Source: Haliotis cracherodii
Taxonomy: Eukaryota
Assembly (NCBI RefSeq): GCF_022045235.1
Contig: NW_027266308.1
Location: forward strand, 15,376,001-15,440,000
Reading direction: 5' to 3'
Length of the DNA stretch: 64,000 nucleotides
The notes below the pieces were generated by a model. It saw only the letters and a list, made by a program, of their open reading frames with translations. It was not told the DNA's origin and ran no database searches. The position numbers were made by a program, and so were the translations under genes. This document shows, one piece after another, positions 2,701-61,718 of the stretch. Numbering within the stretch: the first letter of the stretch is position 1; each line of letters begins with the position of its first letter.

Positions 2701-2962
2701 TTACCTATGCGTTACTTACACCTTGACTTATACTGTTTGAGCGATGTATACATTAATGTGATTGACCTTTTCAAGGACAAACACGTATCCACATACAGTT
2801 GTTTAATAATCACGAGTTAACATTGACAGAAAGGTTGTCCTGTGTTGATCGAATGTGTTACTTGCAGAAGCACATTAACATACAAGTAACATGCGAACAC
2901 GGCATGCTAAACTTGTATTCACACAAAGAACATTCTTTTTACGCTTAGCCCCAGGTAGCCTC

Positions 2963-3746
2963 ATCAGGGGTCTGTGTTAAACGAGAAGCACCTTCAGGGG
3001 GCTGTGTTAAACGAGAAGCTCCATCAGGGGGCTGTATTAAACGAGAAGCTCCTTCAGGGGGCTGTGTTAAACGAGAAGCTCCATCAGGGGGCTGTGTTAA
3101 ACGAGAAGCTCCTTCAGGGGGCTGTGTTAAACGAGAAGCTCCACCAGGGGGCTGTGTTAAACGAGAAGCTCCATCAAGGGGCTGTGTTAAACGAGAAGCT
3201 CCTTCAGGGGGCTGTGTTAAACGAGAAGCTCCATCAGGGGGCTGTGTTAAACGAAAAGCACAATCAGGGGGCTGTGTTAAACGAGAAGCACCATCGGGGG
3301 GCTGTGTTAAACGAGAAGCACCATCAGGGGGCTGTGTCAAACGAGCAGCTCCATCAGGGGGCTGTGTTAAACGAGCAGCTCCATCAGGGGGCTGTTTCAA
3401 ACGAGAAGCTCCATCAGGGGGCTGTGTCAAACGAGAAGCACCATCAGGGGGCTGTGTTAAACGAGAAGCACCATCAGGGGGCTGTGTCAAACGAGAAGCT
3501 CCATCAGGGGGCTGTGTCAAACGAGAAGCACCATCAGGGGGCTGTGTCAAACGAGAAGCTCCATCAGGGGGCTGTGTTAAACGAAAAGCTCCATCAGGGG
3601 GCTGTGTCAAACGAGAAGCTCCATCAGGGGGCTGTGTTAAACGAGAAGCTCCATCAGGGGGCTGTGTTAAACGAAAAGCTCCATCAGGGGGCTGTGTCAA
3701 ACGAGAAGCTCCATCAGGGGGCTGTGTTAAACGAGAAGCTCCATCG
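2963..3746. repeat. 30-bp minisatellite, ~26 copies
   Basis: Unit gctgtgttaaacgagaagctccatcagggg. Confidence 0.97.
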
Positions 3747-5063
3747 GCAACAGGAAACCGTATTACTGCTACTATGTTTGTCGACATGTATCACCTAGAC
3801 TTTTATGTTTGTGTAAAGCAACATGTTTACTTAGGCGTGCATTATGTTTTGTACATAAACAGACTAGGGTGAATGTGATATAACCTGCCGCCTCTTCTAC
3901 TGTGATGCTATAGAGAGATGAACGTGTGCGTCAAACGTTAACCTGGCGACACTTTGCCGTGTGATATGGGTCGTCACCGTGGGGTTCTGGGAGGACGATA
4001 GATCATGAGGGCGTGAGACTGTGCTCTTGCTATCAGTGGTTTACCTGGTCCAGGATCGACTGTTTAAGGCGATATAGCTATATTATAATTAATACACGTG
4101 TAGCATGTTTTGCAATGATGCAATTGTTTCGATATTATTACGTGATTCTGAGTGAGTGGGTAAATTGGTTTTACGCTGCTTAAGTAGTATTTAAGTTAAA
4201 TCGCGGCATGCTAATTTGTTGTGGGAGCAGAGCTAGGGGTAGCACTTAGTGAAAGCCATGGTCATGGTGCTGCCTAACCAAGAAGCCTAATCAGTACTAA
4301 TACCAGAAAATAATCTCCGATCAGCGAAAGCTTTAACAACTAGGCTACCCAACCGCCCATTATTGTCGAATCCCCGGCCGCGTCACACCGAAAAACGTCA
4401 GAAGATGGTACTTGTTGTTACCCTGCCTGGCACGTTGCGATATAAGTGCAATAATCGTGACCTAAAACGTCATTTCACCTTAGGTCACTTTCGTTAATAA
4501 GGAATAATCAGTGACCAGTCCCTTACATATACGCTTTGGCATTTTATCATAATGACATGAGCCAGGGGCCCCGCCGAGGCTAGGGTTGTCCTCTTTGCCC
4601 TTTGCTTCTATTAAAGGTGACTGATGCTGGCGAAGAAGGAAGGCTGGCGTGCCCGGATGACGGCAAGCCAAGGGAGAACACCGCTGTGTCCATCTAATTG
4701 ATCATAGTGTCCCGGCGGCATTGACCATTGCTCGCGAAATCAGTCCAGAGCACATGTCCATGACACAAATTTCATATTACTGACCACCGAGTAAAGCCCT
4801 TACTGACCTGTTCGACCTTGCTTTATTAAAGTACAGACGCAGTTACTCTGTATGAAACGTTCACCAGACATAGGGTTTGGGCACACTGCTCATTGAAGAT
4901 AACGGCACTTTACAGAACGAGTTCTTGCGCAAGAAGTAGCTGAAGTTGACGTAAATCCTTCCTGAAGATGTTGGATGGCGTACAAATCTGAAGAGGACGT
5001 TGGACGTCTATCTCTAGGTGGCGTATCTGGAACTCCGTCCCTCACAGTTCTCTAGACATTACG

Positions 5064-5331
5064 GTGGACCCGTGAAGAGCCGGGATAGAATAGATCTTCA
5101 GTAACCCATGCTTGCCGTAAAAGGCGGCTATGCTTGTCGTAAGAGGCGACTAACGGGATCGGGTGGTCAGGCTCGCTGGCTTGGTTGATACATGTCATCG
5201 TATCCCATTTGCTTGGATCAATTCCCATGATGTCAATCACTAGATTGTCTGGTCCAGACTCGATTATTTACAGACCGCCGTCATATAGCTGAAATATTGC
5301 TGAGTGCGGCGTAAAACAACAAAACAAACAA
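5064..5331 (+). mobile_element. SINE-like / non-autonomous retroposon family B (no tRNA head, structured 5' end), 8-bp TSD
   Basis: gacccgtgaag...gtcgtaagaggcgactaacggg...gaaatattgctgagtgcggcgtaaaacaac(aaac)n. TSD acattacg at 5056 and 5332. Many other copies in the window. Confidence 0.85.
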
Positions 5332-8300
5332 ACATTACGTTAATCAAACAGACAAACTCGATGGCATAAACATGTAAATATTCAACTGCAAGTACTATGT
5401 GAACATTTCAGCAGTACTTGTCCAAGAAGACAGTCACGATGTAGCAGACTCCGATCTCTCAGTCTTAGAAGTAGTTTTTCTTACTGACGGCCCATCAGTC
5501 CACATACAGCACATACAGTGGCCACTATTTCCTAAATTTGGTTGCTTTTTTTCGTCAGTTTCAGTCGTGAGTGTAGATATGGATTTTGGTTGTCCCATTG
5601 ATGCCTAGTCTGTCATACAGACCCTGAAACAAGTATATCCAAAGCAACACATAGTCTATACTATTTGGCAAGTCTAGATTTCTGCAGTATCAGGAATGTA
5701 AGTCTCTGCGCTCCTTGTTATCATAGTTTATAACTATAATTTAACAACTAAAAGTGTTCTTTTCAGAGACTAGATGTTAGTCTACATAATGCCCTGTTTT
5801 GACGTTTTTATTCAGTACAGAACAGTACAACCTTCACCTCGCCTACGACTTCACTTAAAGTGTTTAAAGTCGTGTTAGTGATGCCATTTTTATTCAATTC
5901 AGCTTATGAACTCAATATTATTGAACTGAACTAGCGCTATATAGCTATCATATAAATTGTATAATGGTATGTCCTTTCAAGTCTTCAACAAAACAGTCCT
6001 AAGTGTGACTGGCCAGACATCTAAGTTGTATATCAAGCCTGAACACCAGGAACCGATAATTGCCTTCTTTGATTCTCAGCCGCGGGTTTGTTGTTGTCTT
6101 TGTTATGCACATAGTGTTTATATTAAAGGTTTTAGCTCAAGGCTGAACGAAGAACAACTGAATACAACGTCATAACATTTCTCTGTTTACAATGATAATA
6201 CAATATTAACTTGTGTTCTTCTGGGATCTAAATCGTTACCTTAAATTATTTACATTTATTGATTATAAGTAGTTTAATCATATCACAACGTGTAGAAAGA
6301 ACATATAACGCTAAAAATGTCGATTCGGTCGGGATCATTTTGATATGATGTTCCTGAAAGATACCGTCAGGCCAGGCTGACTTATTTATCATTGTTCCTA
6401 GTTTGCAATACAGGAACATTGTGAACCTTTTAGACTTGTCATCAAATGTTTATTAGTGTCCTGTTAAATGACTTGCCTTTGCATGCGTTTGTGATTTTAA
6501 TAGTGATTCGATAACACATGTTCATGATACAGTCGGAATCGTAAATCGGCTCTGACTATGGAAATGTTTTTACATTAAAGGTATAAGCAAATGCATTTTG
6601 TGATAATAAACAAATTAAGTTGATGTGGCAATGTAGATGTCGCTCCCAGTGAAATATGTAACGACCGTGCATGCAGGTGGAACAAAATGGTTTTAAATGC
6701 CTTGAATCCGACGTCCTTGGACTGCCCATTTTATTTGACCCCTCGTCCCTCTTTAAGAATGTGAATCCAATCGTCCCTCTTTAAGAATGTGAATCTAATT
6801 GCCAATATAATGCCGCGAGAAAATCAGACGACCTCGAGAAAGCCAGTTTGCTGCATAAAGATATAATTGATTTGGCCGTCAATCGCCAATAACCGGCAAC
6901 GGTCTCCATTCCAGCTGATCACAAGAACAAACCGTTCACTATCGGGTGCATTGATCTCCTCGTATAATCACAGTACTTTCAACTCAGTCAATAGGTTAAT
7001 TCACAGTTTACGAAGCTGATCAATAGCTCTCCAGCCTTTCGGGGCTTGTTACCCCTATGGAGAATCCTTGTTCGTCACAGCGTTCCAAACGCTCTGATGT
7101 ATCCCTTCGATTGTCTTTCGACTCCCCGAGGATTTCAAAAGTCTTCGATAAGAATCTGAACTCCTTTAGCACAGGTCGATCACGCTCTTGCGATCAGCGT
7201 CGATGACGTCATCGCATGTCTGTCGTCTTTGCGATATGGAAGGAGACTATGTCGAGCCGGAGATGAAGTTTCAATCTATTCAGTTCTTCCACTTCTTCTG
7301 TCTTCGTCAATAGGATGTGATAAAGCAGGTTCATTTGGGATCCCACTTCAAGAGAACATATTTGCGTGGATGTTTAGGAGCCATGTCCAACAATACAGTC
7401 TGGTTTTGCCCCTTATAAATTGGAATGTCTCTGAGAGAGAAATGAAAGAGACGAATTTCTTTGATCTGGCTGTGAGAATATTGTTTCAGTGGTGTGCAAA
7501 GTACACTACGCTTAGAACGTTAAACGTAATAACTACTAGCCATATCGTTTTCAAAGACAATTTACTCACTGGCAAAAGTAACAGAAATCGTCTTGTATTC
7601 TATCATTTGGGAATATTTCAGACGCATGTAAATCCAAAGTTTTCCTTTGAACTCCATGTATATTGCAGTTTAACTGGGCTGTAGAAGGGTGATCACATAC
7701 ATGGACGCTTTCTACAGATTTGTAACTTAAAAGTATGAATCAATTTCAAATTCAATTTCAACGTTTGTGTTGTCTTCACTCAAGTTATGGTTATAAAGTC
7801 TAGTTATATTTACCTAAATAGAGATGTACAGGTAAACCACTTTGAAAGGAAAGACATATTTGACTACTGACCGTCTTGATGGCCCCGATACTCATAACTG
7901 CATCAATGTACCCTGGTCTCTCTTGGCAAATGTTCCTTGTGTACAGTTAGCCATAGAGTCAGCGTAATTATAATTAATTTTTAGTTATAAGTAAACTGAT
8001 ACCATTGAAGACTTAGTTATATTTTATATTTTGGCTTTGAATAAGTAACACGCAAGTTGTGCTTGTACGTGTCTCCAAGTAAGGGTTAGCGTTCAGTAAG
8101 TATGATATAGGAATTATTCCTCACATACCACGAGCTCCACTGTACAATATAGAAGTGCCCCTTGTGTCTTATTGTTTTACACCACATAAACCTTATTATA
8201 TGTATGCTGGGATTGTTGTCTATTTCCAGGAGACAGACCAACATCTCTGATATGTTTCAAGGGGAACTCAGTGTGAGGCAACGTTCAAGCCTTGGCTGTG

Positions 8301-8332
8301 TTAATGCATCCGATCTCACACAAGGCATTAAT

Positions 8333-9085
8333 GTCACGGGGCACTAACTTCATGTATGACACTCATGTCACAGGGGCACAACTTTCATGTATGACACTCA
8401 TGTCAAAGGGGCACAACTTTCATGTATGACACTCATGTCACATGGGCACCAATTTCATGAATGACACTCATGTCACATGGGCACTAATTTCATGTATGAC
8501 ACTCATGTCACATGGGCACTAATTTCATGAATGACACTCATGTCACATGGGCACTAATTTCATGAATGACGCTCATGTCACAGGGGCACAACTTTCATGT
8601 ATGACACTCATGTCACAGGGGCACAACTTTCATGTATGACACTCATGTCACATGGGCACTAATTTCATGAATGACGCTCATGTCACAGGGGCACTAATTT
8701 CATGTATGACACTCATGTCACAGGGGCACAACTTTCATGTATGACACTCATGTCACATGGGCACTAATTTCATGAATGACACTCATGTCACAGGGGCACT
8801 AATTTCATGTATGACACTCATGTCACATGGGCACCAATTTCATGTATGACACTCATGTCACATGGGCACCAATTTCATGTATGACACTCATGTCACAGGG
8901 GCACTAATTTCATGTATGACACTCATGTCACAGGGGCACTAATTTCATGTATGACACTCATGTCACAGGGGCACTAATTTCATGTATGACACTCATGTCA
9001 CAGGGGCACTAATTTCATGTATGACACTCATGTCACATGGGCACCACTTTCATGTATGACACTCATGTCACAGGGGTACTAATTT
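8333..9085. repeat. 35-bp minisatellite, ~21 copies
   Basis: Unit catgtatgacactcatgtcacaggggcactaattt, with internal TGACA-ctca-TGTCA dyad. Confidence 0.96.
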
Positions 9086-11689
9086 TACATTTGACACAAC
9101 TGTCATACAATGCAATTATTGCAAACGTAAAGCTATTTTTAGAAAGCACACCAAGGTCATACGTGACACCAGTATCACAAGGTGAAGCCTATTTCAAGCA
9201 GGACACTGCATAACCCTTGCGTTGTACTGGAAACTGTTCGTGTAGTCCACATCTAGCGTAAGAAACCCTGTCGGATAATGAATATCACGATGGAGTTCAT
9301 GAAAATACTTGTCAATTAGTTGTATATGAATATAATCAGGATACATATCCGGGGTGTTCTGCCAAATGGCTACCGGCTTATTCAATCGTATCCATGATCT
9401 ATTGACAACGCAAGGCGTTGTACCATAGGTCGTTCAATGTTTTAGGAAATAGACATATGAGGATGAAAGGGGGAGTGATGGGGCAGCCGTTACCTAACGC
9501 TGATAACAGTTTATGCCCATGGCTGTGGATGGTGGTCATTGTATTTGTTGATAGCAGTCATGGTAACACACCTTGAGGCTTGGTGCCAGGATGTTTTATT
9601 TATTTACCAGATTCAAATTAATCAAGTCACAAACTTACAATTTCCTATGTCACGAGATGACATGAATCATTAATCAGGCCTCCACGCCCCTCTCCCCATA
9701 CTGTAAGCATGAGGCTGTGTTGAGCATTGAGCCCACGGCTTTACCTCCAGTCAACAAGAGAGTCATTGTGTATGGAATCCATTAAGGGACATTTTCGCGT
9801 TTTGCTATCTCGAAAATCGAAAAACTACGAAAGCGCGATAACGCACACTTTCGCTAAATGTCGCGTTCTTCCGTTGTTGACTTTACCAATATTTACCAAC
9901 ATTTGTGACTGTTTACCAATGGTCGAGATCACCAAAACGCAAAAAAGCAACTCGACTATCTCCACAAAATCTTGTCCACAGTGTCTCTAAAGGCGCGGTA
10001 TTGATGTATATCAGCTTAAACTAGATACTCGTTTAAAAGGACCATTGTATTTATGAAACTCATCAGCAAGAAGGGGTTTTACTGACTGCTGTCTTGTGAT
10101 GTTTACTACTGAAGGTTCATTATAAGAGTGTTTTTGTGATATAGAGTAAATCGTATATGTACACATTTCAAGCAGAGATTTCTTATGATTATGGAAACGT
10201 TTTATAGCTGTTATGAATAATTAAACATATAATTTTATTTTAGGAAAAACAAAAGAACGAGTAAAATTGTGATAGTAGGTCCTTTTATGAAAATGTCTCT
10301 TCCATATTCTCTCAAGTGACCTAAACATGAACTTGAATACGCCTGATACCGTTTTTGTTAACTTTAACTACATTCACGCCCATCCGAATGGCTATGGAAG
10401 TGTTGAGAGGTTACGAACGGGTTTAATTAATACCAGAAGCGATTTGAAGTTATATAATGTTTATTAATTCAAACCTGATTTGACAGCCATGGCGGTTGTG
10501 ACGTCTATGATAACACCCACAACGCCCAGGTCAACACTGTATCAACTCAATACTTTCAAGGCGAGACGCATGGTACCGTTACTGTTATTTAATTATATTG
10601 TATCCGCATATCCATATTCGCCTGCACATATGTTTAATGCGCAGAACAATATCGCCAGTGAGTCATAACATCCATGTCCCATCTGTGTCCATTCGATACT
10701 ACAGGCTGGCCATTTCTGAATATGTTGCAGACACGATGACATCTGGAGATAGCACACAGACGTGAATAACACACCTGTTCATTATGACAGGAAATCACCA
10801 TGGTGATAATAATAAAAATAATAATAATCACTGAGGGCCCTATGCAATCAATTCCTATAAACATCTATTTTCACATCTTTATCTTTGAACAAATAGTATT
10901 CTCGTAACATGAATAGTTTATTAAAGAAAACGTTGTCAGGTTATATTACTACGTCACCAAATCATATCTAACCAGCTGGTAGCTGATTTCATTTCACATC
11001 GTGTATACCTGTGTTATACCTATATCACATAACATCTTGTCGATACTTTTGTTGCTCTGTTACCATATGGCTGAGACACATGTACAAGTTTCTATTAGTC
11101 TCAATATCCGCATTGCCTCCGTGATTAGTCACACGTGTTAGTAACAGAAGCACCACATACTTTTGATGACTAACAACGGTAACGGATATTCAATTAAATA
11201 AAAGCAACAAAATCCTTTCTGTATTCATACAAAAAACGCCGAGTGCACGATATCAAAAACATGCGTTTATGAATCACTATCAAATTGTGATGATGTCAGG
11301 TGTTCGCAAAAATGTGAGCGTATGAAGGCTATACACTATTGCAATATACTATTATCCGCTCCAATGTTAATATCCGTTATTCGACATTATGTCCTGCTGA
11401 CAACAACTTTCTAGCTGTTCAAACGTTGAACTCTTGGGACCTTGCCGACTCAGGTGTCGCATCCATCGTGTCCAGCCAGGCTTCTTGCACCTCAGGAAGA
11501 GGGGATCTTCCTTGCAACTTTAGTACAAAACGGGTTGCTATGTGCATTTCACTTTGTAATAAGACTCTCAACCCGTTTTGTAAAAATTATTACACCTGGG
11601 GATCTTCCTTGCAACTTTATTACAAAACGGGTTGCAACACAGCTAAGCCAAGGTCTTGAGTCTCCAAAAGGTATTTAGAAGTGATTACA

Positions 11690-26179: not shown

Positions 26180-27954
26180 GTAAGGAATCTATAGCATGTA
26201 GAGTCTTGCAAATGTTCATGTCATGGTACCTCCTAACAGTAGAATGCTTGGGTAATGAACGCTGTTTCGCTTACATGTCACATTAAACAGGGCATCCCTG
26301 TCCTTAATGCCACCTGATGCCATGTTACACCATGGACACTCTGCAGGGGTTTCGGGGAAGGATAGGTCCCAGTAATCCTGAAGATCGTGTAGTTACAATG
26401 TATGTCTTCTAGCCCGATGGCGTCGGAATAATGGTGCTTTTTGTGTGACGTTATATAACATTCTCTGACAGTGCAGTAATATTGACTGAATCTTGAATCT
26501 TCTAAAGTATCTAAAAAATATGTAAAAAATATTTACGTTGAAAAGATTGAATGAGATACCCGTGATTATTGGAAGGAATGGAGTTGGTGAGTGAGGACTT
26601 ATATCACTCAGGGAACATAGTCCGTGTTGGCAGAGTATAATCTTAAAACAATTGACGAAGAAGGGTATTGTTGAGTGAGCATGTCGTTCCCAGACACCCA
26701 TCATGTCCCGGGATGTCAATAGCAGCGTTATTAGAATTTTAGAAAACAAACGGACTGTAACTCTGTCCCAGAGGCGATGGTCATGGCGTCGTAATAAAGC
26801 TGTTTGTCTGAGATGACACACATGGCTATTGAACAGTTTACCCATGTTAATAAAATGTGTCCCACGTTGTCATCCTTGGTTAGACTTGGTCCCAGCAACC
26901 TCTTCTTGTCGTATCAGGCAGCCACGTGGATCAGGTGGTCAGGCACTTAAAGGCGTGTCATCGTGCCCCGACGGAGTGGATCGGTGCTCAAGATATCAGT
27001 CACTGGATTGTTTGATCAAGGTTCGATTGTGTACAGAATGTTTCTGAGTGTGGAGTTAATCAGCAACAAACAAACATATGTCATTGATTAATTTTATCGC
27101 TTTGCAAACGTATAAAGTGTAAATGTCTAATGTTTTCATGGTCTTGGTGTTGAAAGACCTCAACATTCTCACAAACGCCTCCAGTGCAATCTGTAGTCAT
27201 GACTTCCAACTGATGTGTGTTTCTCTGAAGGCATACCCCATTAGTGGATAACACCATGTTCCCTGCTGGTATAGCGTCAGCCTGGTCATTGACACCAGCA
27301 GTGGTCTTGGACGGGCGCCTACATTCGGTACACTCATATGACGTTACCTATGACGTCATAAACGGACCCCTCTCGTGTTACCATGCTGGTTTAGAGTCCG
27401 ATGAAATGTGCACAAAGAAACAAAGTAACTAATAACGGAAGTTCAGATAATTAAAACAGGCGAAATGGCTAGCTATATGAACTAATTAACGTTAAAAGGA
27501 TACTTATTGCGGATGTGTTTTCCCTTACTAATATTTAATCGGTTTCTATGCTTAACCCAGTTTCGATAATATATAACCACGGGTTTAGCTATAAAATAAT
27601 TGACTTGGCATTACAGGATGTGTGGATCAGAGATTAGCTTCTCCACAATGGATCTTTTAATGTGAACGAAATTGTCAGCTACAAGGTGAATCCTGACACA
27701 TGGGAATGTGTATTTGATAAGAATACAGTTCTCTCAGAGAAAAAATGTTTCTGTTTCCTGACAGTTGAACCTACTTTGAAAACGTCCATTAAGCTGTCTT
27801 GCCTAGCATTGATTGCTGATCGACATGCTGAAATGACAGCCTCTTTGTTGATTTCAAGTCCGATACAGTCCTGCGCATAAGCTGCCCTAAGCTGCCTTCT
27901 GAAGTAATTACCAACGTCGGGCAGCTTGTGCTGAGTGAACGTAATTAACGTAGG

Positions 27955-30335
27955 ATGCAGCATATTTCAGCCAATTCCCCAAGTAGAGTACAGTACAATC
28001 TGTGTGTTCGAGATGTGTTGTGATGCAGCATTCAGTCAATTCCCCAAGTAGAGTACGGTACAATCTGTGTGTTTGAGATATGTTGTGATGCAGCATTCAG
28101 TCAATTCCCCAAGTATAGTACAGTACAATCTGTGTGTTCGAGGTGTGTTGTGATGCAACATTCAGTCAATTCCCCAAGTAAAGTACGGTACAATCTGTGT
28201 GTTCGAGGTGTGTTGTGATGCAACATTCAGTCAATTCCCCAAGTAGAGAACAGTACAATCTGTGTGTTTGAGATATGTTGTGATGCAGCATTCAGTCAAT
28301 TCACCAAGTATAGAACAGTACAATCTGTGTGTCCGAGGGGTGTTGTGATGCAACATTCAGTCAATTCCCCAAGTGGAGTACAGTACAATCTGTGTGTTCG
28401 AGATGTGTTGTGATGCAGCATTCAGTCAATTCCCCAAGTATAGTACGGTACAATCTTTGTGTTTGAGATATGTTGTGATGCAGCATTCAGTCAATTCCCC
28501 AAGTATAGTACAGTACAATCTGTGTGTTCGAGGTGTGTTGTGATGCAACATTCAGTCAATTCCCCAAGTAAAGTACGGTACAATCTGTGTGTTCGAGGTG
28601 TGTTGTGATGCAACATTCAGTCAATTCCCCAAGTAGAGAACAGTACAATCTGTGTGTTTGAGATATGTTGTGATGCAGCATTCAGTCAATTCACCAAGTA
28701 TAGAACAGTACAATCTGTGTGTTCGAGGGGTGTTGTGATGCAGCATTCAGTCAATTCCCCAAGTAGAGTACAGTACAATCTGTGTGTTCGAGGGGTGTTG
28801 TGATGCAACATTCAGTCAATTCCCCAAGTATAGTACAGTACAATCTGTGTGTTCGAGATATGTTGTGATGCAGCATTCAGTCAATTCCCCAAGTAGAGTT
28901 CAGTACAATCTGTGTGTTCGAGATATGTTGTGATGCAGCAGTCAGTCAATTCCCCAAGTAGAGTACGGTACAATCTGTGTGTTCGAGGGGTGTTGTGATG
29001 CAGCATTCAGTCAATTCCCCAAGTAGAGTACAGTACAATCTGTGTGTTCGAGGTGTGTTGTGATGCAACATTCAGTCAATTCCCCAAGTATAGAACAGTA
29101 CAATCTGTGTGTTCGAGGTGTGTTGTGATGCAACATTCAGTCAATTTCCCAAGTATAGTACAGTACAATCTGTGTGTTCGAGGGGGGTTGTGATGCAACA
29201 TTCAGTCAATTCCCCAAGTAGAGTTCAGTACAATCTGTGTGTTCGAGATATGTTGTGATGCAGCATTCAGTCAATTCCCCAAGTAGAGTACAGTACAATC
29301 TGTGTGTCCGAGGGGTGTTGTGATGCAACATTCAGTCAATTCCCCAAGTAGAGTACAGTACAATCTGTGTGTTCGAGATGTGGTGTGATGCAGCATTCAG
29401 TCAATTCCCCAAGTATAGAACAGTACAATCTGTGTGTTCGAGGGGTGTTGTAATGCAACATTCAGTCAATTCCCCAAGTATAGTACGGTACAATCTGTGT
29501 GTTCGAGGGGTGTTGTGATGCAGCATTCAGTCAATTCCCCAAGTAGAGAACAGTACAATCTGTGTGTTCGAGATGTGGTGTGATGCAGCATTCAATCAAT
29601 TCGCCAAGTAGAGTACAGTACAATCTGTGTTCGAGATATGTTGTGATGCAGCATTCAGTCAATTCCCCAAGTAGAGTACAGTACAATCTGTGTGTTCGAG
29701 ATGTGGTGTGATGCAACATTCAGTCAATTTCCCAAGTATAGTACAGTACAATCTGTGTGTTCGAGGGGGGTTGTGATGCAACATTCAGTCAATTCCCCAA
29801 GTAGAGTTCAGTACAATCTGTGTGTTCGAGATATGTTGTGATGCAGCATTCAGTCAATTCCCCAAGTAGAGTACAGTACAATCTGTGTGTCCGAGGGGTG
29901 TTGTGATGCAACATTCAGTCAATTCCCCAAGTAGAGTACAGTACAATCTGTGTGTTCGAGATGTGGTGTGATGCAGCATTCAGTCAATTCCCCAAGTATA
30001 GAACAGTACAATCTGTGTGTTCGAGGGGTGTTGTAATGCAACATTCAGTCAATTCCCCAAGTATAGTACGGTACAATCTGTGTGTTTGAGGGGTGTTGTG
30101 ATGCAGCATTCAGTCAATTCCCCAAGTAGAGAACAGTACAATCTGTGTGTTCGAGATGTGGTGTGATGCAGCATTCAATCAATTCGCCAAGTAGAGTACA
30201 GTACAATCTGTGTTCGAGATATGTTGTGATGCAGCATTCAGTCAATTCCCCAAGTAGAGTACAGTACAATCTGTGTGTTCGAGATGTGGTGTGATGCAGC
30301 ATTCAGTCAGTTCCCCAAGTAGAGTACGGTATAGT
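27955..30335. repeat. 65-bp satellite, ~36 copies, within stum-A intron
   Basis: Unit gatgcagcattcagtcaattccccaagtagagtacagtacaatctgtgtgttcgagatgtgttgt. Confidence 0.97.
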
Positions 30336-33300
30336 CTGTCTCGCCTAGACGCGATTGTCATGGAGTCATTGTGAAGCAGTTTGTCGGGTATTGTACCTGT
30401 TGCTAGGGTAGTTTGACCTTGTTCAGGTCTGTTGTAAAATAGGTTTTGCATAACTTTGTTTGGTCAAGGATTTTACGATATGTATGTATGTAACACGGAT
30501 ATAGACTGGTTATATACATACTATCTAACGGTTAATTATGACTGGCTTTAAGTTTTATTAACTATGCATTTGTTCTTTTGTTTGAACCAATTTTTATGGA
30601 GTTTAACAAATGGCTAAGTTTAAAATCTAATTTCTAGAGTTTGTGATAATGTTTTGGAAATGATGTATATCGCTATGTTTTGGAGTCGACCAAAAAGCTT
30701 TCCAAAACAATGAATATAGTATTGTATGATGCATGCACTATTAAGCCATGGTGCCTATATACATATGACATCCCAAACACCCCACTGTGATGATCGTATG
30801 AGGCGAATACACTGGATCGGATGGTCGGACATTTGTGATGGCTTGTCATCGTGTGACCTGATGGCGTGTGTCATATCTTCTGTCCTCAGTCACCGGTCTC
30901 TCTGTCACAGCAGGCAGACGTCAACTATAACTGGAATATTGCCTTTTTAGGTGAAACACAATTGTTACTCACTCACACACATGCAAGTTATTTTCAGTGT
31001 ATGTTGTAGGGGATATGCTAAGCCTGTATAGAGACATATGAATAAACGATTTTTAGAATATTTGATTATCTCACATTCCCTGATAAATAGACATTTAAAC
31101 ATATTATTTTATTTATTATTCAGTTTGAATGTATCGGATTTATTTTCGAAAATGAATAATTCGGTGATCATGATAGTGTAGTTATTAAAAAGACTGCACA
31201 TCTCCATACCTTTCAGTAGCGACACAGAGATTAAATAGAATGAGTGCATATTATTTTATTCTGCATTAACAATTTTGCAGATTTTCATGACGAGAAACCA
31301 TTGAGAGGGATAGGCTGTAACTATTTTGCACTCACACTCCAATGGGTTTATTTGTTAACCGAAACTTTATGTAGATTAATATATCAGTCAATAAGCACCA
31401 TAGTGGCACTCAGACAATGACTCAGTTTCACACCTGGCGCTAATTACAAGAGGCAAACAGTACGCTTAGCATAGTCTCCCTACAAGAAGCACCTGTGAAA
31501 TTTATCACTGTTTGCAATATTGCTCCCATGAGGGTCATATATCATATATCAAACAGCCATATCTTGTCTTAACGTTATTTGTCTGGACAACCAGAAATAG
31601 AATCTTTCAAGAAATGTTTTAGTTAATGCAGAATCAAACTTCAACCAAACTTAGTATTGAATATGGAGTTTCAATGAGCTTGAAGTGTTCTTCAGTGATA
31701 TCATTTTAGGTGGTTAGATGAAACGGAGTTCAATGTCGCGTTCAATCTTGCATTCACGTTTGTGTGTTTGTGTGCGTGATGTAAACCCATCGAATTATAG
31801 AAATTGACAAGTAATTCAGTTTGTATGATTTGTGTACGTTTGGCATTGTTGTATTGCAAGAAATATGATAGAACATACACCAGTGGCATATACATTAGAG
31901 GCACCTATAGTTCATAATTATTGTAATCAGTTAGATTCTACATATATGATTAATTCATTTTTATTGAATACAATTTACTAAACAGATTAATGCATTATTC
32001 TATTTAACTAATATGCACAATAAAGTACACTCATTCATCAGTGTTAATTCAACAGCAACGCAATATCATGTAAATTAATTTCTGATAAAGAAATATAACT
32101 ATACTTAACTAAACCAAATTAATCTAAATTAAACTAAACTTAACAAAACTGAGCTGAGCTGAGCTGAACTTGACTAAACTAAACTAACCTAACATGAAAA
32201 AAACAAGCCGGCATATGCATTTCTCCACTATATAGGCCTTTACGTAAATCAATATTTACAGATTTGTCAATCACTTGTGACAGCAGAGGAAGTCAAAGTC
32301 TATACACCAAACAACAGTTCGTGAGGTCTTGGCTGTGTACTGTACACTGTAGACCAGGTCTGTAGAATCACATCTGAGGTGCGTCCTCTATCCAACGTTG
32401 GTGGAACGTCACTGATAAATCCTCACTGGGGGCTCCATTTGTAACCGGGGGTGTTCATGAATAACACAGGTCGTTATTTGTCGTGAGAATTTATTATCAG
32501 AACAAACGCCCTGAAACATATTAAACTCAAAGATAGATATACACGTAAATATATATGTATGTTAATATACACAAACATAGATATATAAGAGCACATCACA
32601 TTATATTCATTCACATCGTCACACCGACGACATCATAGGAATAGATAGAACTCTTGCTTTCAACAAATACATTAAAGGATGTGTTATAACTTACAATAAC
32701 TATATATACATTTGTATCCCTATACATGTGTAATAATATGATAAATACAATTAATTAATTTCATTAATACACAAGAAAATACAAGCATACCCTGTAGGTG
32801 AAACTGGGGCGGGAACTGCGTTCACCAACGCAAATGACAGGACTTATAATGCCTGCATCTAAATACAAAGACAAATATACTCACTAAGGTAAAACGGGTT
32901 ACCTTAGAAAACATGAATTATGTGTTACACATACAAATGAATGCTTTACATTATACATAAATAAAAATCGCAGAAGCAAACACATACATCATAAATACAT
33001 ACCCACTCGCTCATTCATTCTCAAATGAAACATTTAGGAAAGGTGAAGATATACAGTGCTAACCTAGTTAAAACATGGCTGCAATTATATGACTACATGT
33101 AATGACCTACCTAAATATGTATTAAGACTGTGTAACACTACAGCTGATTACACAAAAAGATGCAAGTACATTATAACAATATGTATAGAAACATCACTAA
33201 CCTATATGGACGGTCTCATATGAAAATACTACACAGAGCAGATATTTGTTGTCCGCATGGCAAGGTGTAGAGGCTGGTGTGCTGGTTAAATGCTGGGTGT

Positions 33301-35017: not shown

Positions 35018-35393
35018 ACTGCTGGGCAAAAGAAAATATCTGGATTTGGCCTCAAATACAAACGTTATCAAAACGTCCCGAAACTCTGCAAACGTAAGGT
35101 CAAAAACACATATATGATATCCGTGTCAAATACATCAACATTGAATAACCATTTCTTGTTTGTTTGTTTCTTGTTCAAACATGGGTGTATACTTACTTTT
35201 GCCCGGGGCGGTAGGGTAGCCTAGTGATTAAAGCGTTCGCTCGTCACGCCGAAGACCCGGATTCGATTCCCGACATGGGTACAATGTGTGAAGCCCATTT
35301 CTGGTGTCCCCCGCCGTGATATTGCTGGAATATTGCTAAAAGTGGCGTCAAACCATACTCACTGACACTGACACTTACTTTTGCTCGGCAGTT
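35018..35393. mobile_element. MITE-like element with ~16-bp TIRs, interrupted by a SINE
   Basis: aactgctgggcaaaag ... cttttgctcggcagtt (2 mismatches). Internal sequence recurs at ~57415-57575. Confidence 0.6.
35207..35372 (+). mobile_element. tRNA-derived SINE (family A), full length, with 16-bp TSD
   Basis: A box TAGCCTAGTGA, B box GATTCGATTCC, tail ..ggcgtcaaaccatactcact. Flanked by acttacttttgc(c/t)cgg at 35191-35206 and 35373-35388. Confidence 0.88.
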
Positions 35394-38179: not shown

Positions 38180-38422
38180 TGAGTGAGCGTTGTTTAACGC
38201 AGAAGTCAGCAATGTACCAGCTCCAACACGACGGTCTGTGAATAATATTGTCTGTGCCACTCGAACCGATGACTGAAGCATGAGTAACGAGCAACACTTT
38301 AGGGGTAAGATTAAACTTAATCAGCCAAGTCACGGTGCCTGATGACCCAATCCTCATTCGTCGGCTCTGGCGACAAGCAAGGGTGAATGGGGATCAGTTC
38401 TGACCGGGAAACCCCACGGGGG
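38180..38422 (-). mobile_element. Retroposon family B copy (diverged)
   Basis: Collinear with family B from the cccgt start to the ttaaacaac/ctcactcact tail. Confidence 0.7.
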
Positions 38423-40821: not shown

Positions 40822-41038
40822 CACCTGTGAAGATCCGGGCTAGAATAGGTATTCAACAGCTCGTGCTTGTCGTAAGAGGCGACTTTTGGGATCGGGTGGT
40901 CAGGCTCTCTGACTTAGTATGTCATAGTATCCCAATTGCGCAGATCAGTGCTCATTATGTCAATCAAGTGATTGTCCAGAGTCGATCATTTACAGACCGC
41001 CGTCAAATAACTGGAATATTGCTGTAACAAACAAAATA
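40822..41038 (+). mobile_element. Retroposon family B copy
   Basis: acctgtgaagatccgggctagaatagg..gtcgtaagaggcgac..ggaatattgc..aacaaac. Confidence 0.82.
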
Positions 41039-41809
41039 AAAAAAATGTTCAGGGAGTCCAAGAGACCCCGCCTATCCTTATCGTTAAAGCCTTCATTCGC
41101 CACTGAAAGCAAGTCCCTGTGTTCGATGCGACACATGGGATGCCTGAAGCCCTTTCACGTGATACCCTGTTGTGACTCACTACTAACTGCGGGACAATGC
41201 ATATTTTAAAACTCTTCGTACAGCCATGGTAACAATAAGGAGTGGAAAAGGCAGCGTGGATTCGACAATCCTTCAGGAGTTATCCTCCCTGGTGCATCAA
41301 CTGTTGGATAACGACCGAGCCGGGATGATATGATGAAATCACGGGGGCTCTGTCACGAAAAGGGGTGTACATGCAGCGGATACGCCTCGCTCACAAACCA
41401 TGCATACATCATGCAAATCCAATTGGTATTTCGTGTCTTGTGAAATCGCACGTGTGAATGCTGTTTTGGCACTGATGATATACCATACAATCGCTCAAGA
41501 AAGCAAAAGACTGATTTTCTTTTTGTAAACTCACAATTGTCAGACGTCTAAAGCTTAACCTGACAGTGAATTCTGTTTTTAACAGCGCTTTGAATAGCAT
41601 ATCAGTTGTATTCGTGCTTGTCGGCTTAGTGTGGTCGGAAAGAACCCAAGAAAGCAAGCCTAAGACGTTCACCACAAACAAGAGCTTGTAATCGAGCCGA
41701 ACCTTGGATTTTATTCCACGATCATTGGATCCGAGCACGCATATGAAGCGACGAATCTCTGCTGCCATAGAGGGAAAGGTCAGGGGTAGGACTTCTATGT
41801 CACACTGTA

Positions 41810-44315
41810 GGCAGAACGTGAGTGTTTGGTCTTGAATCACCAATCCCTAGAGTTATCACATTAGGCATTACGTGAGTGTAGGTTCTTGAATCACCCATCC
41901 CTGGTGTTATCACATTAGGCATTACGTGAGTGTAGGTACATGGATCAGGAACACCTGGTGTTATCACATTAGGCATTACGTAAGTGTCGGTTCTTGAATC
42001 ACCCATCCCTGGTGTTATCACATTAGGTATCACGTGAGTGTAGGTTCTTGAATCAGGAACACCTGGTGTTATCACATTAGGTATTACGTGAGTGTAGGTA
42101 CATGGATCAGGAACACCTGGTGTTATCACGTTAGGCATTACGTGAGTGTAGGTTCTTGAATAAGCCATCCCTGGTGTTATCACGTTAGGCATTACGTGAG
42201 TGTAGGTTCTTGAATCAGGAACACCTGGTGTTATCACATTAGGTATTACGTTAGTGTAGGTTCTTGAAGCAGGAACACCTGGTGTTATCATGTTAGGCAT
42301 TACGTGAGTGTAGGTTCTTGAATCAGGAACACCTGGTGTTATCACATTAGGCATTACTTGAGTGTACATTCTTGAATAAGGAACACCTGGTGTTATCACA
42401 TTAGGCATTACGTGAGTGTAGGTTCTTGAATAAGCCATCCCTGGTGTTATCACATTAGGTATTACGTGAGTGTAGGTTCTTGAATCAGAAACACCTGGTG
42501 TTATCACATTAGGCATTACGTGAGTGTATGTTCTTGAATAAGCCATCCCTGGTGTTATCACATTAGGTATTACGTGAGTGTAGGTTCTTGAATCAGGAAC
42601 ACCTGGTGTTATCACATTAGGCATTACTTGAGTGTCGGTTCTTGAATCAGGAACACCTGGTGTTATCACATTAGGTATTACATCAGTGGAGGTTTTTGAA
42701 TCACGAACACCTGGTGTTATCACATAAGGCATTACGTGAGCGTAGGTACATGGATCAGGAACACCTGGTGTTATCACATTAGGTATTACTTGAGTGTCGG
42801 TTCTTGAATTGGGAACCTCTGGTGTTATCACTGTGGATATTACGTCAGTGGAGGTTCTTGAATCAGCCATCCCTGGTGTTATCACATTAGGCATTACGTG
42901 AGTGTAGGTTCTTGAATCAGGAACACCTGGTGTTATCACATTAGGCATTACGTGAACGTAGGTTCTTGAATCAGAACACCTGGTGTTATCACGTTAGGCA
43001 TTACGTGATAGTAGATTCTTGAATCACCCATCCCTGGTGTTATCACATTAGGCATTACGTGAGTGTAGGTTCTTGAATCAGGAACACCTGGTGTTATGAC
43101 ATTAGGCATTACGTGAGCGTAGGTTCTTGAATCAGGAACACCTGGTGTTATCATGTTAGGCATTACGTGAGTGTAGATTCTTGAATCACCCATCCCTGGT
43201 GTTATCACATTAGGCATTACGTGAGTGTAGGTTCTTGAATCAGGAACACCTGGTGTTATCACATTAGGTATTACTTGAGTGTCGGTTCTTGAATTGGGAA
43301 CCTCTGGTGTTATCACTGTGGATATTACGTCAGTGGAGGTTCTTGAATCAGGAACACCTGGTGTTATCCCATTAGGTATGACGTGAGTGTAGGTTCTTGA
43401 ATCAGGAACACCTGGTGTTATCACATAAGGCATTACGTCAGTGGAGGTTTTTGAATCACGAACACCTGGTGTTATCACGTTTAGCATAACGTGAGTGTAG
43501 GTTCTTGAATCACCAATCCCTGCTGTTATCAATATGTATATTACGTCAGTGGAGGTTCTTGAATCACCTGGTGTTATCACGCTAGGCATTCGGTGAGTGT
43601 AGGTACATGAATCAGGAACACCTGATGTTATCACGTTAGACATTATGTGAGTGTAGGTACATGAATCAGGAACACCTGGTGTTATCACATTAGGCACTAG
43701 GTGAGTGTAGGTTCTAGAAGCAGGAACACCTGGTGTTGTCACGTTGGGCATAACGTGAGTGTAGGTACATGAATCAGGAGCACCTTGTGTTATCACGTTA
43801 GTCATTATGTGAGTGTAGGTACGTGAATCAGGAACACCTGGTGTTATCACATTAGGCACTAGGTGAGTGTAGGTTCTAGAAGCAGGAACACCTGGTGTTA
43901 TCACGTTGGGGATTCGGTGAGTGTAGGTACATGAATCAGGAGCACCTTGTGTTATCACGTTAGTCATTATGTGAGTGTAGGTACGTGAATCAGGAACACC
44001 TGGTGTTATCACATTAGGCACTAGGTGAGTGTAGGTTCTAGAAGCAGGAACACCTGGTGTTATCACGTTGGGGATTCGGTGAGTGTAGGTACATGAATCA
44101 GGAGCACCTTGTGTTATCACGTTAGTCATTATGTGAGTGTAGGTACGTGAATCAGGAACACCTGGTGTTATCACATTAGGCACTAGGTGAGTGTAGGTTC
44201 TAGAAGCAGGAACACCTGGTGTTATCACTTTGGGGATTCGGTGAGTGTAGGTACATGAATCAGGAGCATCGGTGTCATAAATGTAGATATAACGGGAGTG
44301 TAGATTCTTGAATCT
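41810..44315 (-). repeat. 54-bp tandem array, ~46 copies, reading as 18-aa repeat MPNVITPGVPDSRTYTHV (possible disrupted coding gene)
   Basis: ORFs 42948-44228 and 41800-42948 are separated by a 1-bp deletion near 42975. There is also an in-frame 6-bp deletion near 43565. Confidence 0.9.
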
Positions 44316-44989
44316 ATCTCCAATTTGTCTGGGGTCTTGTTATAGATATTGGAATATGAATATACCAAAGGTATTGACAACAAAATAAAGATTTGAAGCT
44401 TTTATTTTCTGAAATACTCCGCCGCTCGTCACAATCACGTTATATGTAAAATACGAATATGACATAAACATAAAAAAATCGTCAACGTCAAGACCAAAAG
44501 ACATTTTACACGACATTTGTGTGACAGTTGTAGATGTAATGCCAAATACAAAGTTGATGGTCGATAAATAATTAAATAAATGATGACATTCACAATACAG
44601 AACCCATGCATGCAAAATATAATTATTGTAATATTTGATATTTATTGATTTGTTGTTGAGTTCACGAATTAAAACTTCAGCTATTTCAATACCATCAAAC
44701 AAATACACCAAACTCAAAGATATCACATTTGACCAATAAATAACATTTCATCAACTCACTAACATACCATTATGTGTAACTTATCAAACAAGACCATCAC
44801 AAACATACCATCGGGTGTTAGTTATCACACATGACCATCACAAACTTACTATTATTTGTAACATATCAAGCAATCCCATTACAAAATATTATTTCACTTA
44901 ACAAGAGAAAACATTGCAAATTCTCATTGACTTTATCTCAGCAAGCAAACATTACCATTGCGTTTCATTTACCCAACAAGAACATTACA

Positions 44990-46483
44990 AACGTACCATT
45001 AAGTTTAACCTATCAAGTAGAACCATTTCATGTTTACGATTAAGTTTAACCTATAAAGTAAAACCATAACGAGTGTACCATTAAGTTTAACCTATCAAGT
45101 AGAACCATTACGAGTGTACCATTAAGTGTAACCTATCAAGTAAAACAATTACGAGTGTACCATTAAGTGTAACTTATCCAGTAAAATCATTACGAGTGTA
45201 CCATTAAGTTTAACCTATCAAGTAAAACCATTACGAGTGTACCATTAAGTTTAACCTATCAAGTAAAACAATTACGTGTGTACCATTAAGTGTAACTTAT
45301 CCAGTAAAATCATTACGAGTGTACCATTAAGTTTAACCTATCAAGTAAAATCATTACGAGTGTACCATTAAGTGTAACCTATCCAGTAAAATCATTTCGA
45401 GTGTACCATTTAGTGTAACCTATCAAGTAAAACCATTACGAGTGTACCATTAAGTTTAACTTATGAAGTAAACCACTACGAGTGTACCATTAAGTTTAAC
45501 CTATCAAGTAAAACCATTACGAGTGTACCATTAAGTGTAACCTATCAAGTAAAACCATTCCGAGTGTACCATTAAGTGAAACTTATGGAGTAAACCCATT
45601 ACGAGTGTACCATTAAGTGTAACCTATCAAGTAAAACCATTACGAGTGTACCATTAAGTGTAACCTATCCAGTAAACCCGTTACCAGTGTACCATTAAGT
45701 TTAACCTATCAAGTAAAACCATTACGAGTGTACCATTAAGTTTAACCTATCAAGTAAAACCATTACGAGTGTACCATTAAGTTGAACCTATCAAGTAAAA
45801 CCATTACCAGTGTACCATTAAGTTGAACCTATCAAGTAAAACCATTACGAGTGTACCATTAAGTTCAACCTAAAAAGTAAAATCATTACGAGTGTACCAT
45901 TAAGTTTAACCTATCAAGTAAAACCATTACCAGTGTACCATTAAGTGTAACCTATCCAGTAAAATCATTTCGAGTGTACCATTTTGTGTAACCTATCAAG
46001 TAAAACCATTACGAGTGTACCATTAAGTTTAACCTATCAAGTAAAACCATAACGAGTGTACCATTAAGTTTAACATATCAAGCAAAACCATAACGAGTGC
46101 ACCATTAAGTTGAACCTATCAAGTAAAACCATTACCAGTGTACCATTAAGTTGAACCTATAAAGTAAAACCATTACGAGTGTACCATTAAGTTTAACCTA
46201 TCAAGTAAAACCATTACCAGTGTACCATTAAGTGTAACCTTTCAAGTAAAACCATTACGAGTGTACCATTAAGTTTAACCTATCAAGTAAAACCATTACC
46301 AGTGTACCATTAAGTTCAACCTATAAAGTAAAACCATTACCAGTGTACCATTAAGTTTAACCTTTCAAGTAAAACCATTACGAGTGTACCATTAAGTTGA
46401 ACCTATAAAGTAAAACCATTACGAGTGTACCATTAACTTTAACCTATAAAGTAAAACCATTACGAGTGTACCATTAAGTTTAA
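44990..46483. repeat. 41-bp minisatellite, ~36 copies, with a degenerate leading edge from ~44740
   Basis: Unit gagtgtaccattaagtttaacctatcaagtaaaaccattac. Confidence 0.96.
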
Positions 46484-49400
46484 CGGAAAATGTCACCAGC
46501 CCAGTCACTAACATTGATGGTATAAAGTCGTAATGCTTGTTTAGTGTTCCGAGCTTGGATTATAGGATATTTGTGTTTTAAATAGTTCGGTGTAATAAGA
46601 TTCCAGTGCTTTGTTAAATCAAGACCAGCATGTATCGAATCACTATTTTAATTTACATAATACATTCTACATGATTAGGTCCCGTGGACCGTCACGCAAA
46701 AATGTATACAGACATCAAATAAACAAGGAATATACAAAATGCAATGGACAGTTATGAAATAAATTCAAAATATACAAACAGTTTTAAACGCATAAAAAGG
46801 GCAATGTCATGACTGATAAAGGACTAGGATCAATAGAGATACAGAAAATACTGTTTGGAAATCAGATGAGAGTTATATGAAAACTACCATATTCCCCAAA
46901 ATGAATATCTATCATAACGTTACACATGATAAACGGTTGTTTCGTAGTGCAGACATCACTATTTCACAGAAGACAAACTTCACAATCACCTGACACGAAT
47001 CAGGCGAACTCGGAAAGGCCACCCCAAATTGATCGTTTCCAAATGTTTTTTTTCTGAAACGAATGATTCTAATTGACTTTATATGGCATTTATTAATTAT
47101 AAATATGCTAGGAAATACATATTTACCTTCAATACCGGTATCTCAACAAATATTTTCCAGTTTTCTATAAATAGATCCAATAAAGGTCAATAACAAAACT
47201 TCAAAATGGTTTATCCATAAAACGAACCAGAAAAATCGAATAAACAGATTCTACGTTTGAAAAATTGCTTTAAAAAAAAAAAAGGGAAACAACTCTTGTC
47301 GCATTATTGCACATCTAACCAGAAAGTCAAGTGCCTGAAGGTTAAAGGTATCGATTTCTGTTGTATACAACACTGAATGGATGAGTTATTTATGATGAGG
47401 GCACTAGGTCCATGTGGAATTGGCGGCCCTAGCAGGTTGGATTCAAGTTGTTGAAACACCACTTCTGTTGTCTGATATATTATTTATGTATATAATTCTC
47501 ATAGCTATTTAATGATTACCTCAAGGCTATAATCACACATGGCACTGAACACGTCAATACCTAGACTGGAAAAGGGTGCCAGACCAACGAGAACACTTTC
47601 TCTTTAAAGTGGGAGAGAAGGAGATAGTGACACCAACTGTGTACGTCCACACTGATGAAACCGACGAACAGCGTTGCGCCCGCAGACCAAAGATTCGAAC
47701 CAACCAAGAATGCTAATGAAATACCTCATCTTAACCTTCATTATGAACAGGCGACAACGTCAAAAGCTGCCAGTTTTGATCAAGTACGAACTACAACTAT
47801 CCAATATCTTTGATGCGAATAATTACGTACTTGAATAACAACACAATTGAATAAATATTTTAGACCCAGATACAAGGAAGGACTCAAGATTGTGGCATAT
47901 TTACAGTTTGATGAAATTAACTAATCAAAAGAAGTTAAAGAACATCCGATTTTCTTTTCAAACACTATCGTTAATCTGTCATGGTTGGTGGGCATCGCAA
48001 CACGCAGCCGTCCAATTTTGTGATTTCTTTAACTTATTTTGAGTAGCATATTATTACATTATGTAACGCAGTGAATAATGAAGAAGTTTGAATAATGATC
48101 TTCCTAACCCTGAAATGACCCCAGCAATAGTAAAGGGTGTCCAAAGGCTCAGATGGAGGGGCACAGAACGAAAGACATGAATACATGTCCCTGATGACAT
48201 TGCACCAACATTACGTCATATGATAACTCGAGCATACATTTTGTCAGGGATGAGACAAGCTACGGATGTGAAGCCAGCTATGGGTCTGACTCCTACATGT
48301 ATTTCATGGCAGTGCTCCAGAACAGGGACAAATATTGTCACTTCAGCTTCATTTTAAGTAGTATGGAAACAAATGTGTGAGATACCTATAATTATCTTTG
48401 TTTTCGGTTTTATTTTCAATATCATCTATTACGCATTTGAAGTCGTTCTTTTGTGTAACTTAATTATTACATATTTAAACAAGACACACTGTTTAACCGA
48501 AAGAATGATTTATCAAAACGTGTGAGACGAAATGAGGTGGGCTTTTAGTAATTATTCTGCAATATTACGACGGGTAGTAGGGGATCCTTACCTTATTAAC
48601 TTTTTGTGAGGAATAAATGATCTTAGCAAACGAGGTCACAATCTATATGTGTCGACGTGTATCCTTGCAATGCTAATCGGATGCTGTTCAGACTAAGAAA
48701 GGGAGATTAAAATAAATCAAACCGTTCTTTTGCTCAATGAAATATTTTAGAGATGAATATTGCACCAAATTTACAATCAATCGTGTGAAGAATAATATCA
48801 TCTATGATCATACAATCCTAATATGAATGGCGTTTCAGTACGATCTCGTAACAAAACAATAAATGTTATCGTCCAGCTAACATGACAACATTACATATGA
48901 ATATAAACCACTCTGGCGGAGAATCACACAGAACATGATTAAAATGAATGTCACGGCGTTTGAAAATGTTCAAAATAATATTGACATACATTTCGCAAAA
49001 TATCGGAAACACCCGAGTTCTGCCGAGTTGCTGATCACGTGACTCGATACACTCAACAAAGGACACCACACATGCCAGCGACAGACGCTTCTGCAGAAGA
49101 TAATTAAATCCTTCAGCAACCGAGTGTAACAGAGGGGCCTGTATCCACGCATTCCTGAGTGTAATCTAAGTTATTTCCCTCTTTCTCAAACTCTGGTTGG
49201 CTTTTCTTGACGTCTCGGCATAACAAGATGGCACTCGCGTGCCACCGACGATAGGTCAGTGCATGTGAAGAAAGGTCACAAAGGGCAGATCACTCTACAC
49301 TGCTTTGCCTTCTGACATAGTAAGGTATCCTTTGGGATTCGCCCGATGCCACTGGAAACGGAAGTATTGAAAACTAATGACACTATGTGAAACTGATCTA

Positions 49401-61472: not shown

Positions 61473-61542
<70 letters not shown>

Positions 61543-61718
61543 TACATGGTAATAAACTGCAGAATATGTAGTTTCATAGTTAACACTTATCTCATCTACC
61601 CTCTGCATCGCTGCGGCACGATGATTATGTTCACATGATTTACTGAATTATTACTAACCGAGGTCTGACAAACTCCGTGCCATGCATATGTATTCGGCTT
61701 CCACTGGCTTGATGAAGC

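Follow-up and report, generated by a model that had tools for sequence, protein, structure and literature searches.

Judged by comparison of its sequence across lineages, the head of a short retroposon of Haliotis cracherodii is a real, unclassified structured RNA for which only a candidate function can be offered. The retroposon lies in the window, as we call the whole stretch of 64,000 nucleotides that was analyzed, and its head is modeled as an H-type pseudoknot, built from a 5'-terminal stem (S1) and a second stem (S2), followed by a third stem (P3) that closes a hairpin domain. Three stems covary (p ≤2e-5 in each case), and this conserved, covarying structure coincides with the 5' end of the element, as the initial annotation of the window had proposed.

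In the fold model, S1 has 4 to 6 bp, loop 1 is a single U, S2 has 7 bp, loop 3 is variable and ends in AGAAU, a linker A-G-Y-N follows, and in the hairpin domain a stem of 5 to 6 bp closes an internal loop and a hairpin of 4 to 5 bp. Applied to the focal copy, on the forward strand throughout, the model places the 5' strand of S1 at 5067 to 5072, the first base of the element being the first base of the stem, and pairs it with the G-run at 5081 to 5086 through four Watson-Crick pairs, one A-A mismatch and one G-U. The loop-1 U at 5073 is present in 16 of 17 representatives, and pseudoknot geometry suggests its role as a one-nucleotide loop. S2 joins 5074 to 5080 with 5093 to 5099 (six of its seven pairs are intact here), with the conserved AGAAU at 5087 to 5091 closing loop 3 and the linker at 5100 to 5103 leading to the hairpin domain. 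There the 5' strand of P3 (5104 to 5109), which the initial annotation had used as the 3' strand of a different stem, has its partner across lineages at 5153 to 5157 (p 1e-5); the 3' strand is assigned to 5154 to 5159, where the LINE-derived head ends. Enclosed by P3 are the hairpin core at 5132 to 5153, consisting of GCUU, a GUCG/CGAC stem with a purine-rich loop, and UAA, and a 22-nt tandem duplicate of this core at 5110 to 5131 that is diagnostic of the dominant subfamily. The core is invariant by search design, being fixed by the search patterns, and the covariation test therefore covers S1, S2 and P3 only. Across lineages, strong conservation extends to around 25 bases in junctions and loops. 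AGAAU, though it was not part of the search pattern, precedes the core by 18 to 21 nt in 31 of 38 unique instances.

Covariation was assessed with one representative per lineage on anchored blocks, by comparing the duplex energy of each sequence's own strands with that of swapped partners over 100,000 permutations. Among 17 representatives, own and swapped energies were -6.35 and -4.85 kcal/mol for S1 (p 2e-5), -9.00 and -3.15 kcal/mol for S2 (p 1e-5), and -4.31 and -2.01 kcal/mol for P3 (p 1e-5), values to be read with the limits that the 5' strand of S2 was partly located by complementarity, that offsets were set by hand and that the lineages are only partly independent. An earlier swap-test set without viruses and without mollusc-type rows gave the same picture. 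Pairs were counted on hand-anchored blocks, without a covariance model, because a MAFFT alignment misregistered the 5' blocks; in a set of 14 representatives, from which the ambiguous locus L182 was excluded, S2 is paired in 93 of 98 cells and six of its seven pairs show changes on both sides, and S1 is paired in 63 of 84 cells, its outer two pairs being mostly open.

These results redraw the fold first put forward for the head. The letters that the initial annotation quoted are all present where it placed them, and its first pseudoknot stem (GAAGAnC/GAUCUUC) is real, being identical with our S2 (p 1e-5, n 17). The compensated change that it saw in this stem, from GAAG/CUUC to GGGG/CCCC, is also borne out: exact matches in the animal's own genome comprise 5,499 AA/UU and 108 GG/CC forms, many of the latter in tandem arrays, against 5 and 1 mixed forms. 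The swap marks an older subfamily and is one historical event. Two other stems fared worse. An outer stem CCCGU/ACGGG has no lineage-specific pairing (p 0.18), nor has a stem GGGnUA/UAACCC (p 0.23), and both were rejected in every swap-test run. The outer stem is present in the minimum-energy fold of the focal copy, with a z of -1.19 and 22 of 200 shuffles equally good. It can pair in 58 of 70 cells, and GGGnUA/UAACCC in 37 of 42, because both are pairings of a C-run with a G-run; an alternative register of this kind is physically possible in many members. As for further compensatory changes proposed from single copies, the hairpin variant GCCG..CGGC at 5114 to 5128 occurs in one of 21 duplicated-hairpin copies in an unbiased sample, which is the focal copy itself, and those at 40836 to 40862 and 55245 to 55260 are confined to the copies in which they were noticed. 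A search of Rfam with the window, 14 homologous loci and 5 loci from viruses, to a limit of E 1, returned zero relevant families.

The focal copy is a full-length, non-autonomous retroposon of LP-SINE type (5067 to 5331, forward strand, ~265 nt) from the duplicated-hairpin subfamily. It is flanked by 8-nt target-site duplications (TSDs) at 5056 to 5063 and 5332 to 5339, with three unmatched bases between the left TSD and the element start, and its part at 5160 to 5331 holds the body, a tail that also occurs in a SINE with a tRNA head, and terminal repeats of CAAA type. The focal copy has one mismatch each in S2 and P3, and it may well be inactive. The element is a dispersed repeat with about eight copies in the window. 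These include an old-subfamily copy with GG/CC in S2 and a single hairpin (38189 to 38420, reverse strand), a full-length copy with a single hairpin (40823 to 41040, forward), a duplicated-hairpin copy whose 5' end is decayed or truncated (55040 to 55289, reverse), 5'-truncated copies with a duplicated hairpin (14697 to 14926, reverse) and a single hairpin (53080 to 53276, reverse), and two diverged copies (19261 to 19446, reverse; 26893 to 27037, forward). A search of the animal's own genome with the element gave 2,008 first-look candidates, 40 of which were scored, and 174 profile matches were found in 663,341 unmasked bases made up of the window and 60 evenly spaced 10-kb stretches; by extrapolation, the genome-wide copy number is on the order of 180,000.

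The subfamily with the 22-nt hairpin duplication is the commoner one, both in exact matches across the genome (5,234 against 674 for the single-hairpin form) and among sampled copies (37 against 10), and its mean body identity to the focal copy is 0.883, compared with 0.858 for single-hairpin copies. The duplicate disturbs the conserved geometry of the hairpin domain; the success of this subfamily thus implies that the domain tolerates change or counts less than the pseudoknot for the spread of the SINE. Extra hairpin copies are also seen at two further loci in the genome (L016 and L289). Tandem arrays with a period of ~51 nt, the unit being the pseudoknot half of the head, occur at four sites (C15:4781838-4783449, C17:6442396-6443191, C7:20011957-20012446 and C1:5446351-5447399), so minisatellites have arisen from the head of the SINE on repeated occasions. 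The window also holds a second SINE, which has a tRNA head in the genome sample, at 16662 to 16801, 35210 to 35366, 51150 to 51299 and 56367 to 56492; the ~45 nt of tail that it has in common with the retroposon suggest that one partner LINE serves both. The window also contains a 251-bp stretch repeated at 100% identity 39.5 kb apart (22028 to 22278 and 61535 to 61785), a long near-palindrome at 468 to 579 that is probably a MITE-like inverted repeat (a weak Rfam match to MIR2646 falls far below the gathering score), and at least eight minisatellite arrays (2962 to 3747, 8331 to 9105, 20499 to 21230, 22364 to 23530, 27954 to 30339, 41798 to 44314, 44761 to 46493 and 60059 to 60638).

From its sequence, the element very probably corresponds to the LP-SINE that Matetovici 2016 described from Haliotis (PMC4758252), and the element family and its head sequence have therefore been in the literature since that year. 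That paper describes LP ('LINE promoter') SINEs in Haliotis (Hdi_LP/Hmi_LP), oysters and Littorina, with a ~70-bp head common to Nimb-17_LMi, I-3_DR and RTE-9_CPB (PMC4758252). The element agrees with it in having no head derived from tRNA or 5S RNA or any other small RNA, variable TSDs, a short tandem-repeat tail and a similar length (the published consensus is 255 bp), and by eye its ~70-nt head matches the scallop 'Nimb-17 homology' heads of Fig. S2, which share its C-run, AGAAU spacing and hairpin core and carry another compensated version of S2 (PMC4758252). The AATATA hexamer of the published text reads AATATT in the focal copy, and the 22-nt duplication of the dominant subfamily here is a difference from the published LP-SINE. 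A SINE with a Snail domain, Pan_3, listed in the supplement and apparently not counted among the LP-SINEs, also starts with the motif (PMC4758252). The text consulted treats the head as a promoter, a function that it calls untested, names the trypanosome Pr77 promoter/ribozyme as a parallel, and mentions neither structure nor viral occurrences. Among open-access papers, searched by their text, the fold and the viral occurrences of the motif were not found, and 15-mers of the hairpin core had zero occurrences in the main texts of papers.

The motif also lies upstream of LINE open reading frames, which bears out the LINE origin that had been proposed for the head. The exact 22-nt core was found at 39 metagenome loci, and five of seven downstream ORFs scanned encode APE endonucleases. 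At a further locus, L174, the motif sits behind an (AAT)n tract and upstream of an APE-less ORF that has no Pfam match and a weak match to non-LTR reverse transcriptase proteins (E 3e-4 to 0.01). By appearance, we take homologous loci to be RTE-like, R4-like, termite and bivalve-like. In prokaryotic genome bins there were four matches, one of the core only and three with the upstream motif, the latter being probably host DNA in the bins; phage and plasmid records gave zero matches. Repeats of the whole motif in tandem were seen at some element 5' ends (a 74-nt unit in at least three copies at L186 and two diverged copies at L157). In the animal's own genome, inserted SINE copies aside, 12 RNase-H LINE stretches and 16 APE loci were found to lack the head ahead of their ORFs. 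These searches did not find the parent LINE, and the tails of 30 RNase-H LINE loci differ from that of the element. An abundant LINE family in the same genome (L216 to L226, e.g., C45:66021482-66030482) has open APE-RT-RNase H frames of 1,260 to 1,266 amino acids, no such head and another tail.

The element begins sharply. Of 100 profile matches of at least 40 bits that reach the tail (663 kb searched), 34 start at model positions 1 to 4 and 9 at positions 5 to 10, the rest being scattered. The common start point claimed at the outset is thus real, with the correction that the first base is 5067 and not 5069. The absence of a tRNA head also stands, as ARAGORN finds zero genes in the element (L001) and none of the bases at -6 to -1 is conserved in 46 copies; an extra G before the start is present in only 8 of these 46. 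Among resolved TSDs, 8 of 14 (27 cases examined) and 8 of 13 (24 examined) end exactly at the first base; among older, pattern-selected copies 2 of 11 do so (31 examined), with 7 of these 11 within one base. The boundary is the first base of S1 in the H. cracherodii element, as it is in another family with 7 distinct flanks, and in the scallop SINE it lies at most five C ahead of the loop U (PMC4758252, Fig. S2). The first base itself varies by family: the Haliotis element has G and the scallop SINE has C, a difference that would be easier to reconcile with processing than with initiation. In all full-length retroelements examined the head is the 5'-most part, even where a tRNA-derived part follows it. 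At L182 and L187, tRNA-like sequence was seen by eye directly 3' of the motif, as in the scallop SINE, and ARAGORN finds no gene there.

Outside retroelements, four unrelated RNA-virus records carry the motif in sense, 4 to 72 nt behind the last stop codon. It follows the stop codon by 22 nt in L196, which has an RdRP_4 domain (119 nt from the record end), by 4 nt in L319, with a nodavirus-type capsid (67 nt), by 9 nt in L313/L322, one virus with a Peptidase_A21 capsid (73 nt), and by 72 nt in L323, with an RdRP_3 domain (27 nt), all of these being distances to record ends that may be incomplete. Relatives of the L196 polymerase were searched for and none was found. In a 212-kb DNA-virus record, L195, the full motif lies between two ORFs, 155 nt before one of them, and the region upstream of the related ORFs in L307 and L308 is without it, which suggests that the motif was gained or lost as a module between these viruses. 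Successive viral scans gave zero matches, then structured matches in two of six, the same two of 6, of 2 and of 7, and in a looser scan six of 18, adding four new loci from three viruses; matches without S2 were taken as chance. A profile made from non-viral rows scores the RNA-virus loci at E 6e-16 to 5e-7, values that are inflated in that the patterns force part of the match, and P3 is weak in L195, L319 and L313, which make up three of the five viral lineages.

With about as much confidence as doubt, we propose that the head is an unclassified Xrn1-type roadblock to 5'-to-3' exoribonucleases (Xrn1/Xrn2) that would fix the RNA's 5' end. Copies of the element would be transcribed from host promoters; after decapping or intron turnover, the nuclease would stall at the base of S1, so that read-through transcripts would lose everything 5' of the knot's first base, with the stem-loop domain docking on the pseudoknot and bracing its 5' end. 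A partner LINE could then recognize the tail and reverse-transcribe the protected, unit-length RNA, yielding copies that start at the same base, and in viruses a short subgenomic 3' RNA would result from the same fold. A roadblock is placed ahead of self-cleavage because four unrelated RNA-virus records have the motif, in sense, where their 3' UTR begins, and a roadblock fits both contexts, since it covers the retroelement boundary at S1 as well as this viral position. The viral 3' UTR is the usual location of exoribonuclease-resistant RNAs, or xrRNAs (PMC8374639), and two features of that class are present here, namely sense occurrence in a viral 3' UTR or intergenic region and, by covariation, a pseudoknot that engages the 5'-terminal helix.

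Comparison with known xrRNAs shows both likeness and distance. In plant viruses, class 3 xrRNAs stop Xrn1 exactly at the base of P1 (PMC12397905), which matches the element boundary, and like them and the flavivirus xrRNAs the motif combines a pseudoknot with a 5'-terminal helix and lies in 3' UTRs or intergenic regions (PMC12397905, PMC8374639). It has an AGY-like linker after the pseudoknot, where class 3 xrRNA has AGY in J1/3 (PMC12397905). It lacks, however, their T-loop L2B/J1/2 network and three-way junction (PMC12397905, PMC8374639), and its hosts, unlike theirs, include retrotransposons. The coremin xrRNA of beny- and cucumoviruses offers another parallel, modeled as a small pseudoknot, in which the single base of loop 1 is constrained, plus an essential downstream hairpin (PMC10321173), and it too is found in viral 3' UTRs (PMC6546385, PMC10321173). 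The motif differs from it in having neither the YGAD loop nor the conserved 10-nt spacer, in its longer stems, and in that the downstream hairpin is here the sequence-conserved part, whereas hp2 of coremin is variable (PMC6546385, PMC10321173). Several points speak against a roadblock. The head has none of the motifs that define class 1, class 3 and coremin xrRNAs; Xrn1 is not stalled by frameshift pseudoknots of the ordinary H-type, even when a hairpin is added (PMC10321173); and an S1 of 4 to 6 bp alone would presumably not thread a ring, which in xrRNAs surrounds the 5' end and measures 15 to 16 nt. In a 2021 review, xrRNAs had been characterized in viruses only, an animal-genome xrRNA being sought and uncharacterized (PMC8374639). 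Furthermore, the dominant subfamily keeps its sharp start despite a duplicated hairpin and a P3 mismatch, and TSD ends are not always exact.

A rather unlikely alternative is that the head is an unclassified self-cleaving ribozyme that would cut just 5' of S1 and free the element from read-through transcripts. Its position is that of the HDV-like and twister ribozymes established at the 5' ends of RTE and R4 elements (PMC5786205), upstream of APE ORFs in five of seven proteins scanned and of the APE-less ORF of L174; as in RTE, R2, R4 and Ingi, the TSD abuts the motif, and a ~70-nt 5' piece is modularly common to unrelated LINEs, as is Pr77 (PMC5786205, PMC6765202, PMC8501958). The conserved junction and loop bases, the 5'-most place of the head and a hairpin domain laid out like twister (stem, GC, hairpin, UAA, stem) also favor it. 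However, no Rfam ribozyme family matches, and the misfit to HDV, hammerhead and twister that was suspected early on is confirmed feature by feature. HDV-like ribozymes form a nested double pseudoknot, P1-P2-P3-P1.1-P4, with a catalytic C in J4/2. The initial annotation had seen an outer stem enclosing the pseudoknot and an HDV-like order of stems, whereas the covarying stems run in a different order, and a P3/L3/P1.1 block is absent. Twister ribozymes combine an L4 GUCCYAAGC, a T1 partner GAGGG after P2 and a UAA/AA cleavage loop; likeness to them is limited to a partial resemblance to L4, the sequence after the closing stem being variable and without the conserved GAGGG partner for T1. The hammerhead blocks CUGAnGA and GAAA are absent in any permutation (PMC10085705), with no CUGA in 5067 to 5160 and no such block among the conserved positions. 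Although UTRs of toti-like viruses do carry ribozymes, most viral ribozymes precede ORFs or occur as tandem pairs (PMC13725137), and a cut at this site would separate four RNA-virus genomes from their 3' ends. Nor is the first base conserved, and in the most successful subfamily the conserved domain is disturbed.

Translation elements occur both in the 3' UTRs of viruses and in the 5' UTRs of LINEs, and the head could be a protein- or ribosome-binding cis-element, whether a cap-independent translation enhancer or a site for a polymerase or ORF protein, that serves at the LINE 5' end and in the viral 3' UTR. Such a role, which we consider improbable, would suit the conserved purine-rich loop as a protein site and the position of the motif 155 nt before an ORF in L195, but leaves unexplained both the base-exact 5' boundary and the retention of the head in non-coding SINEs of several lineages. 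There is only a slight chance that the published hypothesis is correct and that the head is an internal DNA promoter whose folding is incidental. An internal promoter should give a fixed start, and the position at the 5' extremity, common to Nimb and RTE LINEs, agrees with such a promoter (PMC4758252). It is opposed by compensatory pairing in three stems, by the lack of a conserved extra G before the start and by occurrence in viruses that have no DNA stage, as a DNA promoter cannot serve an RNA virus; PMC4758252 itself, as noted above, calls the function untested.

Of the two leading readings, exonuclease roadblock would make the motif an xrRNA that animal genomes encode and self-cleavage would make it a new class of ribozyme, and the published 'LINE promoter' head is reinterpreted as an RNA structure. 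Our broader proposal, which we hold to be slightly more apt to be wrong than right, is that the motif represents an undescribed class of xrRNA that has been exchanged between RNA viruses and several retrotransposon clades, in which LINEs and SINEs let a host decay enzyme carve their exact 5' end. To our knowledge, the origin of the defined 5' end of promoterless non-LTR elements is known only for those that carry ribozymes. If the proposal is true, this would be a genome-encoded xrRNA with copies numbering on the order of 100,000, and the trimming of element transcripts would constitute a third route to an element's 5' end, beside promoters and ribozymes.
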